A DNA stretch of 64,000 nt from Candidatus Magasanikiibacteriota bacterium (lineage in GTDB: Bacteria > Patescibacteriota > Patescibacteriia > Magasanikbacterales > GWA2-37-8), in contig JACPGS010000029.1 in the NCBI GenBank assembly GCA_016189025.1, positions 15,911-79,910 on the forward strand. Direction: 5' to 3'. This document shows positions 10,647 to 50,692 of this stretch, one piece after another; position 1 is the stretch's first letter, and each line of letters opens with the position of its first letter. A model generated the notes under the pieces. It was not told the origin of the DNA and made no database searches. It saw only the letters and a program-made list of their open reading frames with translations. The position numbers and the translations under genes are program-made.

Positions 10647-10694
10647 AAGGGAGTATCAAAAATCCCGCATTGCCGCGGGATTTTTGATACTCCC
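10647..10694. promoter_or_regulatory. 21-bp perfect inverted repeat (agggagtatcaaaaatcccgc / gcgggatttttgatactccct, 6-bp spacer), followed by a second palindrome tgaaccgcgccgggttca
   Basis: Read directly from sequence; lies between the zinc-ribbon gene stop and the AbiEii-like operon start. Confidence 0.5.
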
Positions 10695-10775
10695 TGAACC
10701 GCGCCGGGTTCAGGGATACTCTTTTGTAGCTACCAAAGAGAGGTGCCCCTTTGACGTGTGGGGCGCACGGGAGTG

Positions 10776-44545: not shown

Positions 44546-44592
44546 AAGGGATTCCTCGGTCGCCTAAGGCGACCTCGGAATGACAACGAGAG
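44546..44592 (-). repeat. short dispersed repeat copy C (GTCATTCCGAG…GGAATCCC) downstream of trxB
   Basis: Reverse complement carries gtcattccgaggtcgccttaggcgaccgaggaatccc. Confidence 0.35.
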
Positions 44593-46384: not shown

Positions 46385-46828
46385 CTAGGCGTCAATTGCT
46401 TCCACTTCTTTTAGCCGGCGCAGATACCGTGCGGTGCGTTCAAATTCGGTGGCCAGGAATTTTTTGACAATCGCGGCCGCGTGCTCGGGCGTTAAAAAGC
46501 GGCCGGCCAGGCAGAGCACGTTTAAGTTATCTTCTTTACGTCCCCGCTCGGCCGCTTCAATGTTATAGCCAACCCCGGCGCGAACCCCCCGCACCTTATT
46601 CGCCACTAGGCACACGCCGTGGCCCGTGCCGCAAATTAAAATGCCGCGATGTTCGCGCTTGCCGGCTACCCGTTTAGCCAGCTTTTGGGCGATTAGGGGG
46701 TAATCGTCCTCGGGATCATAACGGCTCGGCCCCAAATCCACTACCTTTATCTTAAGTTGGGTAGTCAAGTAGCGTTTGAGGTATTTTTTCAGCTGATACC
46801 CGGCGTGGTCAGAGGCGAGATAGAGCAT
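46385..46828 (-). CDS. rpiB: ribose-5-phosphate isomerase B
   Basis: MLYLASDHAG…ICGTGHGVCLVANK; start trimmed to Met17. Confidence 0.85.
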   Translation of the reverse strand: MLYLASDHAGYQLKKYLKRYLTTQLKIKVVDLGPSRYDPEDDYPLIAQKLAKRVAGKREHRGILICGTGHGVCLVANKVRGVRAGVGYNIEAAERGRKEDNLNVLCLAGRFLTPEHAAAIVKKFLATEFERTARYLRRLKEVEAIDA

Positions 46829-46921
46829 ATTGGTAGAGGCGGATTTACGCTGAAAGCTGCGCGGCTGTACACGCAAGAATAAAGCATAACAATAAGATAA
46901 TTATAGGGTACCGGGCGCCTA

Positions 46922-46950
46922 TTGACAAGAGCGCTATTTTGTGCTATTCT
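46922..46950 (+). promoter_or_regulatory. sigma70-like promoter (TTGACA-17-TATTCT) upstream of the DGR target gene
   Basis: Read from sequence; followed by a 16-codon uORF and a leader of about 160 nt. Confidence 0.45.
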
Positions 46951-47117
46951 ATACCGTTATGATGGTAATGAAAAGTCGCTCTTTAATTAGTGTCTTCAGC
47001 TTTCTTTAGCCTTATTTTATCAAAAGTAAGCCCAAAAGAAGGCTGGTAAACCAGCACTTCCTCTTTGCCACGTGGCAAGGAGTAAGCCCTTTACGAAAAG
47101 GGCAGAAAGGGATCGCT

Positions 47118-47588
47118 ATGAGCGATCTCCGCGCGTTGGCACACCTGGAAGAGCAGCTTGGCGAGGCCCGTTGGCAAGCTCTGATCAGCTCGGGTAACAC
47201 CGGGAAGATCAAGGAGTTCCTGGACACCCTCCCCGAGTGCGCCATCCCCACCGAGATGATCCTCGGCGGGGTCGCCTACGACATCCTCTCGTTCCTCCGG
47301 GGTGAGCAGTCGGTGAAGGGCGACCTCATGGTCGAGCGGGCCAAGGAGATGGGCGCTCACCAGGGTAAGAAGGAGCGCGAGCATCTCCTTGCTTACCAGG
47401 ATGAGATCCCCGTCGCGCTCCGCGGCAAGGTCGTCTTCGTCTTCACCGACGACCGGCGCCCGGGCGGCCCCGAGTACGTCTGCTGCGTCTGCTGGGACGA
47501 CGACCGCTGGGTCTCGCGCTGGGACTGGCTCGACGGCGGCTTCTTCGGCCGCTGCCGGGTTCTCCGCCGCAAGTCCGCGCAGCCCTAG
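47118..47588 (+). CDS. DGR target (variable) protein, C-terminal variable repeat
   Basis: 156 aa, about 65% GC; last 39 codons form a VR matching the downstream TR except at TR adenines. Confidence 0.7.
   Translation: MSDLRALAHLEEQLGEARWQALISSGNTGKIKEFLDTLPECAIPTEMILGGVAYDILSFLRGEQSVKGDLMVERAKEMGAHQGKKEREHLLAYQDEIPVALRGKVVFVFTDDRRPGGPEYVCCVCWDDDRWVSRWDWLDGGFFGRCRVLRRKSAQP
47454..47570 (+). repeat. DGR variable repeat (VR)
   Basis: 117 bp aligned to 47956..48072; 20 mismatches, all at TR adenine positions; identical GC-rich 3' block ccgggttctccgccgc. Confidence 0.8.
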
Positions 47589-47660
47589 GATCCTTGGAAT
47601 CTCAGCACTGTCACAAACGGTGTCGGGGTCACTCGGTCCCTTCGGCTCGCGCCGCAACAA

Positions 47661-47695
47661 GCCCGCCCTAAACACTAGGGCGGGCGTATCATTTT
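47661..47695 (+). terminator. hairpin plus T-run downstream of VR (terminator / DGR-associated stem-loop)
   Basis: gcccgccc-taaacacta-gggcgggc followed by gtatcattttt. Confidence 0.55.
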
Positions 47696-47955
47696 TGTGG
47701 TATACTGTACCCTGGATAGTAAACGAAACAGTCCACGGTGGCGGTCGCTCAAGGCGACCAAAGCTTTGGGCGGTTGAACTCTGGATACACCAACCGGCCA
47801 GAATAGTTTGGCGCATGTCGCCAGCTAGCGTGCCATTGGTATACCCTAAAAATGATGATACTTGGTGCAAAATGCTGGTGAGATCAAGTCTCCAAATAAA
47901 ATACAGCCCTGAGAGTATTCAAAGGGTAGTGATACAGATGGCAATTTGCATAAAG

Positions 47956-48072
47956 CGGCACCCGGACGACCCCGAGAACGTCTACTACGTCTACTGGAAC
48001 GACGACCGCTGGGTCACGAACTGGAACTGGCTCGACAACGACTTCAACGGCAACTACCGGGTTCTCCGCCGC
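47956..48072 (+). repeat. DGR template repeat (TR)
   Basis: Non-coding copy of VR, enriched in AAC codons in the VR frame (N-N-N-N corresponding to D/G/C in VR). Confidence 0.8.
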
Positions 48073-48113
48073 CAGTCTTCTCATTCTCCCGTCCATGTGG
48101 CGGGAGTTTCATT

Positions 48114-48536
48114 TTATGACGATTCGAGTTTCCGTATCCACCCCCCAAGCATAATACCGGCCTCAGTCAACTTTCCTGCTAGTTGTGAGTATTGGTTTGT
48201 CTCAAGCCCCTTGGCCTCCCACAAAATTGTTATGAAAAATTTAAGGTGATCAAGTTTTTGCGCAAGTTGGGTAAGTACCGCTAATTTCTGTTCACGTTTA
48301 GCATACTGCGCTGTCAATGTCACAGCAACCAAATCCGTAAATAAAATATCTATTTTTACGCCCAGCGTATAGCGCGTGAGGCGAGGAAGGTGTTGTAAAA
48401 AATTATGCCACAACAAATAACTCTCTTTGAGCAAAGACAAAATGGGAATTTCAGTACTGCCCTGCCCGTGAGCAAATTTGCCGTGGGGGGGGGGGGGCTT
48501 GATAGCCGCGTCGGTGGAAAAATTCAATTGGCTCAT
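48114..48536 (-). CDS. accessory variability determinant (Avd)-like four-helix-bundle protein; N-terminus uncertain
   Basis: LPRLTRYTLGVKIDI…LKFFITILWEAKGL…TEAGIMLGGWIRK parallels Bordetella phage Avd (IPRKHG…LRFWLRFLAGIQ…AEVGRILGSWI). Confidence 0.65.
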   Translation of the reverse strand: MSQLNFSTDAAIKPPPPHGKFAHGQGSTEIPILSLLKESYLLWHNFLQHLPRLTRYTLGVKIDILFTDLVAVTLTAQYAKREQKLAVLTQLAQKLDHLKFFITILWEAKGLETNQYSQLAGKLTEAGIMLGGWIRKLESS

Positions 48537-49517
48537 AGTTACGAAAATATTATTTGCTTAGAAAATTTATGCTTAGCGTGGGAAGAATTTATCATCGGCA
48601 AGAAAAAGAAACAAGATGTTATAGATTTTGGTCGTAGCTTGATGGACAATATTGTAGAGCTTCACGAGGCGTTAGTCAATCGCACTTATCGCCACGGCAG
48701 TTACGAAAGTTTTTACATCACCGACCCCAAACGGCGGCATATCCACAAGGCCAGCATGCGCGACCGCTTGCTTCATCACGCAGTGTATAGGATTTTGTAT
48801 CCATTTTTTGACCGTACGTTTATTGGTGACTCTTTTTCTTGCCGAGATAACAAAGGCGTACATAAAGCGCTTAATCGTTTTCGGCGTCTAGCCTGGCGTG
48901 CCAGCCGCAACCATACGCGCAATGTCTGGGTGTTTAAGTGCGACATCCGCAAGTTTTTTGCGCGCGTTGACCACCAGATTTTGTTAGCGATTTTGCATAC
49001 CTATATTCCGGATACGGATATTTTACGGCTGCTGCAAAATATTATTGAGAGCTACCATACCGAAAGCAATCCTGGCATTGGCCTACCGCTTGGTAACCTC
49101 ACCTCACAGCTTTTCGCCAATGTGTATCTAAACCGGCTTGATCACTGGGCCAAGCACGCACTTAAGTCGCATTATTATGTGCGTTATGCCGATGATTTTG
49201 TTTTGCTTTCTCGCGACCGGTTCCAGTTAGCAGAAGCCCTACCAAAAATTCAGGAATTTTTGCAGACTCAACTAAAACTATCCCTGCACCCGGACAAAAT
49301 ATTATTAAAGACAGTAGCCTCGGGCATGGATTTTTTAGGCTGGGTACATTTTTCCAGCCATTGTTTGCTTCGTACCAAAACTAAACAGAGAATGTTACAG
49401 AATATCAGAAACTCAATCAGCGAGGCGGGTCTGACATCATATCTCGGCCTAATCAGCCATGGCAACACCGCCGGATTGCGCGAACGGGTGATGGAGGAGT
49501 ATTGGCTGTGGAATTAA
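48405..49517 (+). CDS. DGR-type reverse transcriptase; true start probably near 48528
   Basis: YENIICLENLCLAWEEFIIGKKKK N-terminal RT0 block, TSQLFANVYLNRLDH, YVRYADDFVLL (YADD) catalytic motif. Confidence 0.85.
   Translation: MPQQITLFEQRQNGNFSTALPVSKFAVGGGGLDSRVGGKIQLAHSYENIICLENLCLAWEEFIIGKKKKQDVIDFGRSLMDNIVELHEALVNRTYRHGSYESFYITDPKRRHIHKASMRDRLLHHAVYRILYPFFDRTFIGDSFSCRDNKGVHKALNRFRRLAWRASRNHTRNVWVFKCDIRKFFARVDHQILLAILHTYIPDTDILRLLQNIIESYHTESNPGIGLPLGNLTSQLFANVYLNRLDHWAKHALKSHYYVRYADDFVLLSRDRFQLAEALPKIQEFLQTQLKLSLHPDKILLKTVASGMDFLGWVHFSSHCLLRTKTKQRMLQNIRNSISEAGLTSYLGLISHGNTAGLRERVMEEYWLWN
48485..48497. repeat. 13-nt poly-G homopolymer at the avd/RT 5' junction
   Basis: Seen directly (ccgt G13 ctt). 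Confidence 0.9.
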
Positions 49518-50692
49518 AGTAACGATTTTGGATCTACTCGGAGAATCTTATCATCCCCGCTCCGGGGTTTGCCGCGACCGTCGGTGTTGGAGGTGGAAAG
49601 GTAGAGGTAACCATCGGGGCCAAGCGCAATTGCGCGCAGCCTGCCGTAATGACCGCGCCAATGGGCGCGCAGTTTTTTTACTTTCCCCGCGGGAGTAATT
49701 TCGGCTTCGTACAACGACTCGCCGCGCAGACCGGTAAAGAAAATCCGATCTTGGTAAAAAACTGCTCCGGCCGGCGCCCAGGTTTCTTTCGGGCCGGAGT
49801 TAATCACAGGCGTTTTCATCTGGGCGCGTTTTTCTTTTCCCTGAATCGTCGGCCAGCCATAATTCGCGCCTGATTCAATCAGATTTAATTCATCTAAACC
49901 CGATAGTATTCCTGACCGGCCATGTTCGGTTTCCCACAGCCGCCCTTGGTTATCCCAGGCCAATCCCTGGGCATTGCGGTGGCCATAGGAATAGACTGCC
50001 GTGCCCAAGGGATTGTTGGCGGGGATGCCTCCGTTATCGGCCAGGCGCAAAGTTTTGCCGGCGAGAGATTTCAGATTTTGCGCTAATTCTGGTTTGCCCG
50101 CATCGCCGGTAGTAATATATAGGAAACCATCCGGCCCAAAGGCGAGGCGTCCGCCGTCGTGGTAGGGCGCGCCGGGGATGTTATCAATAATGATTAAGGG
50201 GTCAGTAAGGAAATTTATCCATTGATCATTAACTAAATCAGCCTCCAAACGATAGCGGGTAATGCGGTTTTTTAAGGTAAAATCCGTGCCGGAAGTTTGG
50301 TAAAGATAAAGCCAGTGGTTGTTGTTATAATTTGGGTGAACTGCTAGGCCGAGCAGCCCTCCTTCGCCGGCCGCCGCGCCTCCATTCGGTACAGTAATAG
50401 TAGTAATTTTGCCGTCCGTAGTAATTTTGCGCAGCGTCCCGGGTCGCTCCGTTACCAGCATATCCCCGCCCGGCAGCCAGGCAATTTCCCAGGGAATGCG
50501 GAGGTTTTGGGCAACTACGGATACGGTGGAGGTAGGCAAGGCGGCCGGGGCGGTAACTTGTTCCAGCGCGCTCCCCGTGGGGCGATAGAGCAGATAGCCC
50601 AAAGGGTGCAGGGAACCTAGCAAGATGCCGAAGGCAGCAGCACCGGCAAACCAAAACATGACTATTGCTTGGTGGCGTCCTGGTATATTCAT
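49514..50692 (-). CDS. PQQ-dependent sugar dehydrogenase (soluble aldose dehydrogenase-like beta-propeller)
   Basis: GLLGLAVHPNY and HGRNAQGLAWD blocks, N-terminal signal/TM. Confidence 0.7.
   Translation of the reverse strand: MNIPGRHQAIVMFWFAGAAAFGILLGSLHPLGYLLYRPTGSALEQVTAPAALPTSTVSVVAQNLRIPWEIAWLPGGDMLVTERPGTLRKITTDGKITTITVPNGGAAAGEGGLLGLAVHPNYNNNHWLYLYQTSGTDFTLKNRITRYRLEADLVNDQWINFLTDPLIIIDNIPGAPYHDGGRLAFGPDGFLYITTGDAGKPELAQNLKSLAGKTLRLADNGGIPANNPLGTAVYSYGHRNAQGLAWDNQGRLWETEHGRSGILSGLDELNLIESGANYGWPTIQGKEKRAQMKTPVINSGPKETWAPAGAVFYQDRIFFTGLRGESLYEAEITPAGKVKKLRAHWRGHYGRLRAIALGPDGYLYLSTSNTDGRGKPRSGDDKILRVDPKSLL

Follow-up and report, generated by a model that had tools for sequence, protein, structure and literature searches.

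In the DGRs for which it has been described, a hairpin or cruciform lies 4-34 bp after the variable repeat (VR) and consists of a GC-rich stem of 7-10 bp with a 4-nt GRNA loop (Guo et al. 2011, PMC3240598). The size and the sequence of this loop are both critical, and two extra loop bases abolished the activity of BPP-1. In the same report, DGR hairpins were noted to resemble terminators, and their distance was described as 'quite flexible'. Putative IMH segments have been predicted in nearly all DGRs, with IMH identical to IMH* in some cases, and architecture B3 was found in 90% of the CPR DGRs surveyed (Wu et al. 2018, PMC5758913). Just downstream of the template repeat (TR), an Avd-binding stem-loop is predicted in 207 of 278 DGRs, including those of CPR (Handa et al. 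2024, bioRxiv 10.1101/2023.10.23.563531).

The locus described here is a complete, ordinary DGR of the CPR type, found in a Candidatus Magasanikbacteria genome within the 64,000-nt stretch of DNA that was analysed as a whole (the window). We consider it likely that the 3' junction of its VR is that of an ordinary CPR DGR, in which an adenine-free block is the equivalent of IMH and IMH* and a hairpin at 47661-47685 is the terminator of the target gene. The cassette is made up of the following genes and repeats:

47118-47588, plus strand: DGR target gene, 156 aa, small C-type-lectin-like fold with the VR at its C-terminus
47454-47575, plus strand: variable repeat (VR), a 122-nt repeat with 83% identity to the TR
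47956-48077, plus strand: template repeat (TR), with 28 adenines against 9 in the VR
48114-48536, minus strand: avd accessory gene (longest ORF taken; true start uncertain)
48405-49517, plus strand: DGR reverse transcriptase (RT; longest ORF taken; RVT_1 match with E 6e-23)

The order and strands of these parts, target (+), TR (+), avd (-) and RT (+), correspond to architecture B3, TR-(avd)-RT, and are identical in every relative with enough sequence. Order, strands and CPR host all agree with the CPR B3 cassettes of Wu et al. 2018 (PMC5758913), and no departure from them was found. The position and strand of avd are likewise the same in all relatives, and its product matches two Avd profiles, NF033474 (E 2e-16, with a score of 60 bits that lies below the curated cutoff of 80) and PF22296 (E 2e-10, with 41.7 bits, above the cutoff of 40). 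The motifs YADD and LGNLTSQ are hallmarks of DGR-type RTs, and both occur in the translation of the RT that adjoins this avd gene. The conserved part of the RT starts from about residue 27, and the RTs of relatives begin at an ATG right behind a G-run (48485-48497 in the window). As a side observation, the divergent avd/RT start region holds a hypervariable poly-G:C tract of 7-13 bp. The target gene ends in a TAG stop codon at 47586-47588, and its protein matches, with 100% identity, a hypothetical protein from a Candidatus Magasanikbacteria MAG; nearly all of its 93 homologues are of about 155 aa, with a C-terminal RVLRRK.

The two repeats are in register at an offset of 502 nt, with the TR downstream. 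Since the downstream copy contains 28 adenines and the copy within the gene only 9, the former is the TR and the latter the VR. They differ at 21 positions, 20 of which are adenines in the TR that are replaced in the VR (14 by G, 4 by T and 2 by C), the most 3' of them at 47554; the sole mismatch of another kind lies at 47571, with A in the VR and C in the TR. An alignment-based scan collected 73 related loci, 15 from genomes and 58 from metagenomes, and an ungapped search that forgave TR adenines recovered 21 VR/TR pairs from 18 of these loci. In all 21 pairs the TR lies 430-620 nt downstream of the VR, and the differences again fall nearly all on TR adenines. About 40 of the related target loci yielded no TR in this ungapped search. 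One of them at least, the remote target L015, has its TR on a different contig; others are short contigs or may be orphan targets. L015 comes from the same MAG as the TR-adjacent target L010, carries the same block, and shows 18 A-to-N changes relative to the TR of L010. The identity of the window locus as a DGR thus follows from 20 of 21 differences falling on TR adenines, from the adjacency of Avd and RT, and from a cassette order shared with the relatives and with B3.

At their 3' ends the two repeats carry the following elements:

47555-47570, plus strand: A-free block CCGGGTTCTCCGCCGC, VR copy, IMH-like; encodes R147-V-L-R-R151, the last beta-strand
47571-47575, plus strand: AAGTC, the final 5 nt of VR/TR homology, with 47571 being A in the VR and C in the TR
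48057-48072, plus strand: A-free block CCGGGTTCTCCGCCGC, TR copy, IMH*-like; the identical 16-mer

An initial annotation of this DNA held that VR and TR end in an identical, IMH-like 16-bp GC-rich block and diverge right after it. The identity is borne out, as 47555-47570 and 48057-48072 are the same 16-mer, composed of 12 G/C and 4 T with no A; even with 2 mismatches allowed, CCGGGTTCTCCGCCGC occurs nowhere else in the window (0.09 copies expected). The divergence is less abrupt than had been proposed. It does begin at 47571 (A versus C), but the following AGTC is still shared and the two repeats are unrelated only from 47576, so that the homology ends at 47575 rather than at 47570. In all 21 related pairs, from 18 loci, the homology is closed by an A-free block (CGN-GTN-CTC-CGY-CGC or a close variant) and AAGT, past which the VR runs into the stop codon and the TR into (C/T)TTT(C/T)(C/T)ATTCTCC. 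A 16-nt run devoid of A is unremarkable by itself in a 122-nt TR with 23% A; what exceeds chance is its location at the 3' end in 21 of 21 related pairs.

The block is also the 3' limit of adenine mutagenesis, both in the window locus and in the 21 related pairs. Family-wide, 283 of the 460 TR adenines lying between -100 and -16 from the block end are mutated in the VR, and none of 35 is at the two adenines of AAGT (+1/+2). The only two adenines found inside any block, both in L024, are unchanged as well. Differences that do not involve a TR adenine persist at +1 (the window, L016 and L060), at -2 (L029) and at -3 (L054), indicating that neither AAGT nor the 3' portion of the block is overwritten from the TR. 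Whatever the coding constraint on the block, natural variation in this uncultivated CPR DGR and its relatives appears to place the point at which information transfer stops at or within these 16 A-free base pairs.

In BPP-1, IMH and IMH* form the 3' end of VR and TR, start with a GC-rich segment, are invariant, mark the limit of mutagenesis, and are followed by divergence. The segments 47555-47575 and 48057-48077 resemble them in all these respects: the one that closes the VR on its 3' side recurs almost unchanged at the same end of the TR, their start is GC-rich, and the boundary of A-to-N mutagenesis and, as predicted, of information transfer falls here. The block differs from the BPP-1 element in being shorter (here 16 A-free bp and a further 4-5 bp, there 14 GC bp and a further stretch of about 21 bp), in being less extreme in composition than the 14-bp G/C run of BPP-1, with its four T, and in overlapping the coding sequence for the last beta-strand. 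VR and TR copies differ at one position in the window (47571) and are identical over 20 nt in most relatives, which suggests that donor and recipient are distinguished by sequence further downstream. As far as sequence comparison reaches, the block with AAGT is therefore supported as the equivalent of IMH/IMH*, and the IMH-like character proposed initially agrees with its 3' position, its GC-rich and A-free composition and its coincidence with the mutagenesis limit. According to this model, block and AAGT would form a shared, non-mutable 3' anchor that ends both VR/TR homology and adenine mutagenesis, and the transfer of cDNA information from the TR into the VR would, as judged from the Bordetella phage element, most likely stop inside the block. 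The block would then be constrained twice, being the equivalent of IMH/IMH* and also encoding the RVLRR strand of the C-type-lectin-like target.

Adenine is also avoided in the codon choice of the block. Codons for R, V or L that contain an A make up 10 of 304 in the block (3.3%) and 211 of 1704 in the upstream non-variable part of the same genes (12.4%; Fisher p = 3e-7), which indicates that adenine avoidance is selected. Such avoidance would follow from protection of the scaffold strand and equally from a cis element that is kept invariant, and the two are inseparable here. The identity of the two copies is in part trivial, because an A-free stretch cannot be mutagenised and encodes the conserved RVLRR strand.

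Between the target gene and the TR lie the following elements:

47661-47685, plus strand: 10-bp GC-rich hairpin, putative intrinsic terminator of the target gene (fold, terminator scan, relatives)
47692-47696, plus strand: T5 run behind the hairpin, starting 6 nt after the stem
47698-47706, plus strand: putative extended -10 promoter-like element TGgTATACT for the TR RNA
47714-47955, plus strand: conserved structured 5' leader of the TR-containing RNA, starting GGAUAGUAAACGA (alignment, covariation)

The hairpin had initially been described as an 8-bp stem with a 9-nt loop, followed by a T-run, 90 nt after the VR. Hairpin and T-run are real, with the dimensions corrected: ViennaRNA and the terminator scan agree on a stem GCCCGCCCTA/TAGGGCGGGC of 10 bp, including 8 G-C pairs, a 5-nt loop AACAC and a tail GTATCATTTTT. 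The distance was nearly right, as the hairpin begins 91 nt past the block end, 85 nt past the end of the homology and 72 nt past the TAG stop. Such hairpins are frequent here: the window contains 8 perfect hairpins of at least 10 bp, where Markov-1 simulations predict 0.55 (a 15-fold enrichment), and 4 of the 7 others sit 13-52 nt behind long plus-strand ORFs, suggesting that the genome uses them at gene ends.

Among the relatives, a crude scan of 63 distinct loci detected a strong hairpin with a T-run, placed between +15 and +154, in 36 of them or more, and many loci with such a hairpin have no TR within 5 kb. The stems differ in sequence (GCCCGCCC, CGCGCACC, CCCCGCAC, GGCCCTCAC and others) and all are followed by T-runs; in one locus (L041) the stem is the same as in the window and lies at +33. 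In TR-bearing relatives the hairpin is succeeded by a T-rich tail, the element TGnTAtAAT, 6-7 nt, and then GGA(A/T)AGTAAACGA; in 17 loci TGnTAtAAT is conserved at this distance of 6-7 nt before the conserved start of the leader. In leader-bearing relatives the distance from VR to hairpin ranges from 14 to 125 nt. Among the 19 of 20 leader-bearing loci in which the -10 element was found, 12 have 8-15 nt between the 3' end of the hairpin and the -10 hexamer of TGnTAtAAT (the window has 15 nt), and 6 with an inserted A-run have 21-25 nt, one locus not having been re-measured. L010 and L015, the two targets of one TR, are alike in the block, in AAGT and in the 73 nt that follow, and differ in their distal hairpins. 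Where targets occur in tandem (L014, L024), the terminator-plus-promoter module stands behind the last gene only, and across tandem and remote targets a hairpin proximal to the VR is kept at each VR, the terminator being different or absent.

On these grounds, namely a sequence and a VR distance that vary, a T-run that is kept, a place before the putative promoter of the TR RNA, and presence without a nearby TR, the hairpin at 47661-47685 is most likely a rho-independent terminator of the target gene. The terminator scan flags it as terminator-like, and in the manner of intrinsic terminators it combines a GC-rich stem-loop with a T-run after a stop codon on the sense strand, is conserved among homologues in structure and free in sequence, and has similar counterparts at other gene ends of the window. 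It differs from them in its weak tail, the T5 run being offset from the stem by 6 nt, and in that the T-rich tail doubles as the spacer or upstream region of the next promoter. The hairpin with its T-run would thus end transcription of the target gene 15 nt upstream of the -10 element and insulate the TR promoter against read-through, rather than serve as the cruciform that characterised DGRs have close to the VR. That hairpin and promoter are so tightly coupled could also reflect regulation instead of plain termination.

Nearer to the VR, a different structure was found:

47577-47652, plus strand: long imperfect hairpin (RNA fold) at the target 3' end and in the 3' UTR, a degenerate copy of the family's NNNCTYGG-unit hairpin

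Most relatives carry, between stop codon and terminator, a tandem array of 3-7 units of 8 nt each, with the pattern NNNCT(T/C)GG (CCTTGGNN). In the 94 nt following the VR of 63 loci the sense strand contains 164 CTYGG motifs, whereas the genome at large has about 0.2 per 94 nt, and the commonest spacing between motifs is 8 nt (53 of 115 intervals). Across 379 kb of related loci, 29 of 30 CTYGG clusters are located at the 3' ends of target genes. The self-complementarity of CCTTGG, the central TT excepted, lets the array fold into a single long hairpin, with segments of about 6 bp separated by 2x2 loops and beginning about 5 nt after AAGT. Its mean z is -3.25 in the 33 loci with at least 3 motifs, and 62% of all loci have a z below -2. 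A structure drawn by hand for this array is 78% paired in an alignment of 15 loci, and 92% in its two central helices. Of its 24 pairs, 10 show compensatory changes, where shuffles give 6.0 +/- 1.5 and slid controls 2-5. The frequent G-U pairs suggest that it forms in sense-strand RNA, most simply the 3' UTR of the mRNA. A second subclass of loci has, instead of the array, a 7-bp hairpin with a 4-nt loop, AAAGCGC-TTYG-GCGCTTT, at +5. Across all loci, 40% have a perfect inverted repeat of 6 bp or more that begins within +34, as do 5% of shuffles. The possibility that the CTYGG motifs form individual C(UUG)G triloop hairpins was rejected, 118 of the 164 having no further flanking pair, the same as with permuted flanks.

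In the window the array is degenerate, with 2 exact motifs plus variants and a z of -2.1, and the locus lacks any perfect stem of 4 bp or more that begins within +34 of the VR. The stop codon here lies inside the 5' arm of the array, and the protein is two residues (Q and P) longer than that of L001, an arrangement explained by a TAG-to-CAG change that extended the protein. Should homing in this clade involve a structure next to the VR, the best candidate would be the long periodic hairpin at 47577-47652.

How far do these observations favour the IMH-equivalent block and the terminator over other readings? One may argue that the block has no cis role at all, its adenine-free codons merely protecting the RVLRR strand and the homology ending because the gene ends. 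The block peptide is indeed nearly invariant in 38 aligned homologues and forms the last strand of the predicted fold, and scaffold-strand protection would fully explain both the lack of A and the identity of the copies that follows from it, so that neither implies a separate cis-acting IMH role. We nevertheless find this unlikely: the homology continues for 4-5 nt past the block into AAGT(C), beyond the last strand and into sequence that is non-coding in the TR, the TR adenines found there are never mutated in the VR (0/35), and VR/TR differences at +1 have stayed unhomogenised in three loci. Moreover, such segments occur in nearly all DGRs (Wu et al. 2018, PMC5758913). The distal hairpin, for its part, had been linked at the outset to target recognition as in characterised DGRs. 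It might help the retroelement to locate the VR, as in phage BPP-1, and perhaps terminate transcription as well, a dual role made possible by the terminator likeness and the flexible distance of the hairpins of Guo et al. 2011 (PMC3240598). Its GC-rich 10-bp stem (8 G-C), an inverted repeat downstream of the VR on the target side, is within their range of 7-10 bp, some hairpin follows most related target genes, and L041 has the same stem at +33. However, its loop is AACAC, of 5 nt, instead of a 4-nt GRNA on the sense strand, in an element type where two extra loop bases abolished BPP-1 activity, and its distance to the block is 91 nt (85 nt to the homology end) instead of 4-34 bp. Unlike the described cruciforms, it is followed by a T-run and a putative promoter, and it keeps its place relative to the next transcription unit and not to the VR, from which its distance ranges from 14 to 125 nt in the relatives. 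The two targets of one TR share their proximal hairpins but not the distal ones, and the distal hairpin is absent from the upstream members of tandem targets. We therefore regard a recognition role as quite improbable, more so even than a block devoid of cis function; the initial annotation had itself named a generic terminator as the outcome that would speak against its proposal, and that is what the hairpin at 47661-47685 resembles.

A better, if still doubtful, case can be made for the VR-proximal periodic hairpin of CCTTGGNN units as this clade's equivalent of the cruciform, which would make the distal hairpin irrelevant to homing. Its motifs cluster at target-gene 3' ends (29 of 30 clusters; 164 motifs over a background of 0.2 per 94 nt), its fold starts about 5 nt after AAGT with a mean z of -3.25, its pairs show compensatory change (10 of 24 versus 6.0 shuffled, with central helices 92% paired), inverted repeats of at least 6 bp within +34 are enriched (40% of loci versus 5% of shuffles), and it is retained at each VR of tandem and remote targets. 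This last point loses some force in that sharing among paralogous targets may come from recent duplication. The copy in the window, moreover, is degenerate (2 exact motifs, z -2.1, no perfect stem of 4 bp or more within +34), the second subclass of active loci has short hairpins in place of the array, and the frequent G-U pairs suggest an RNA structure of the 3' UTR rather than a DNA cruciform.

Downstream of the terminator, the template RNA is probably a stand-alone transcript of about 400 nt, as judged from the arrangement of signals around the TR. A separate promoter would drive an RNA composed of the structured leader, the TR and a 3' hairpin:

48086-48106, plus strand: hairpin 13 nt past the TR block, followed by TTTCATTTT; candidate TR-RNA terminator and/or Avd-binding stem-loop

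In an alignment of 15 loci the leader folds into three helical domains and a long-range helix that joins it to the 5' edge of the TR. Its 54 pairs are 93.7% paired, and 33 of them show compensatory change, against 18.4 +/- 2.3 in shuffles (0/500) and 8-14 in slid controls. An Rfam scan of 46800-49700 with E up to 1 gave no match, which places leader and hairpins outside the curated RNA families. In the hairpin at 48086-48106, compensatory changes occur in 4 of 5 pairs over 18 loci; it looks terminator-like on the plus strand and may also be the counterpart of the Avd-binding stem-loop. The RNA of BPP-1 (Handa et al. 2018, PMC6182149; Handa et al. 2024, bioRxiv 10.1101/2023.10.23.563531) is alike in having a stem-loop downstream of the TR and a structured TR flank, and the long-range helix between leader and TR edge is a further point of likeness. 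In the locus studied here, unlike in BPP-1, the large structured part (about 242 nt) is non-coding and lies upstream of the TR, and only about 40 nt follow downstream before the terminator-like U-run and the antisense avd gene. In addition, the TR here has a hairpin 13 nt downstream, which the IMH* of BPP-1 lacks. RNAduplex found no convincing BPP-1-like TR:Sp priming duplex between the TR block and the downstream or leader RNA. Two candidates, pairing the CUCCGCC of the block with the 3' arm of the TR hairpin (GGCGGGAG) or the block with GCGG...GGCGGUUGA in the leader, were dropped, being short, overlapping helices supported by covariation, and not fitting L010, whose block is CTTGTGCG.

By itself, the finding of the block and the distal hairpin matters little, since almost all DGRs are predicted to have an IMH-like block and the hairpin appears to be a terminator; both are ordinary parts of a known element, and the clade-specific extras are more interesting. 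The rule of a GC hairpin after the VR, drawn from phage DGRs, does not seem to transfer simply to this clade, which differs in having a periodic VR-flanking structure and, as predicted, a separately transcribed, structured template RNA. For the structured leader, the hairpin of 8-nt units and the poly-G:C tract, no description was found in the DGR literature compared, a comparison outside which the CPR survey of Paul et al. 2017 falls. One may speculate, tentatively, that the cis elements of the clade have been rearranged jointly in three ways. The recipient would be marked after the VR by a long hairpin of tandem 8-nt CCTTGGNN units, with 6-bp segments separated by UU/TT 2x2 loops, and not by a short cruciform with a GRNA loop. 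The donor would be a stand-alone non-coding RNA of about 400 nt, with a structured 5' leader of 242 nt, a promoter of its own and a terminator-like 3' hairpin that replaces a long spacer, and the avd/RT pair would be gated by the hypervariable poly-G:C tract (7-13 bp) in its divergent start region. If this is true, the A-free block would be the sole feature in common with the Bordetella paradigm. Such features could guide the reconstitution of CPR DGRs or the engineering of compact cassettes for targeted mutagenesis.

As a minor observation, an inverted repeat of low complexity (47688-47705 / 47839-47856) pairs the promoter/T-run region with an A-rich invariant segment of the leader.

Upstream of the TR of this DGR (47956-48077) lies an RNA element, the leader, that is listed here with its extent:

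47714-47955: leader, ~242 nt, upstream of the TR; conserved structured RNA with covariation support

The leader is preceded by its own putative extended -10 promoter, and Rfam holds no family for it. Taken together with the TR and the hairpin 3' of it (48086-48106), the presence of a leader with its own promoter suggests that the template RNA of the B3-type DGRs of CPR bacteria, whose cassettes read TR-(avd)-RT, is a stand-alone ncRNA.

An A-rich segment that is invariant in the leader (47839-47856, GTATACCCTAAAAATGAT) could pair with the tail of the probable terminator of the target gene, which overlaps the promoter (47688-47705, ATCATTTTTGTGGTATAC): the two form an inverted repeat of 18 nt with 89% complementarity. 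This complementarity is one of low-complexity sequence, and the same leader segment is also complementary to the U-run 3' of the TR hairpin. A short leader hairpin at 47742-47759 (CGGTCGCTCAAGGCGACC) is an insertion otherwise present only in two related loci, L016 and L017, and a second copy, 89% identical, is found 3.2 kb upstream within the window (44557-44574).

Directly 3' of their stop codons, many of the DGR target genes carry tandem 8-nt NNNCTYGG units, which are nearly confined to target-gene 3' ends and which fold into a long hairpin with UU/TT 2x2 internal loops at regular spacing. Such arrays were found at:

window 47577-47652
L065:278-345
L021:957-1025
L031:1076-1145
~40 further related loci

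In the window, the array corresponds to the long imperfect hairpin proximal to the VR. Relatives in the window's subgroup terminate in AAG TCC GCG TAG (compared with L001:760-762). In the window target gene a CAG replaces this TAG and lets reading run on for two extra codons, Q and P, so that the proximal hairpin has the stop codon (47586-47588) in its 5' arm.

Two target loci on different contigs of one MAG (CAYFME01), L010:5341-5471 and L015:5293-5423, can be compared; L015, with 18 A-to-N differences from the L010 TR, is a second, remote target of that TR. From mid-gene through +73, counted from the conserved VR 3' end, the two loci share 93% identity, and they are unrelated past it; the shared unit therefore ends where the proximal hairpin ends.

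A homopolymer tract lies in the divergent start region of avd and RT:

48485-48497: poly-G:C tract of the window; G13 on the + strand, C13 on the avd sense strand

In 11 of 12 related cassettes a tract of 7-13 bp, differing in length from locus to locus, is kept in the stretch that separates the Avd core from the start of RT (at the same place as in the window in L005, L010, L014, L018, L024, L033, L035, L038, L050 and L060). In 10 of 11 loci, the reading frame of the closest open ATG upstream does not match that of the Avd core, and several loci lack a canonical in-frame start past the tract. For the divergent avd/RT pair, the tract may serve as a promoter spacer or as a switch that works by phase variation or slippage; a literature search found nothing connecting DGRs with homopolymer tracts.

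Elsewhere, the window's strongest palindromes lie at 10648-10716, where a perfect 19-bp inverted repeat (AGGGAGTATCAAAAATCCC ... GGGATTTTTGATACTCCCT) is overlapped by a second, 10-bp hairpin.
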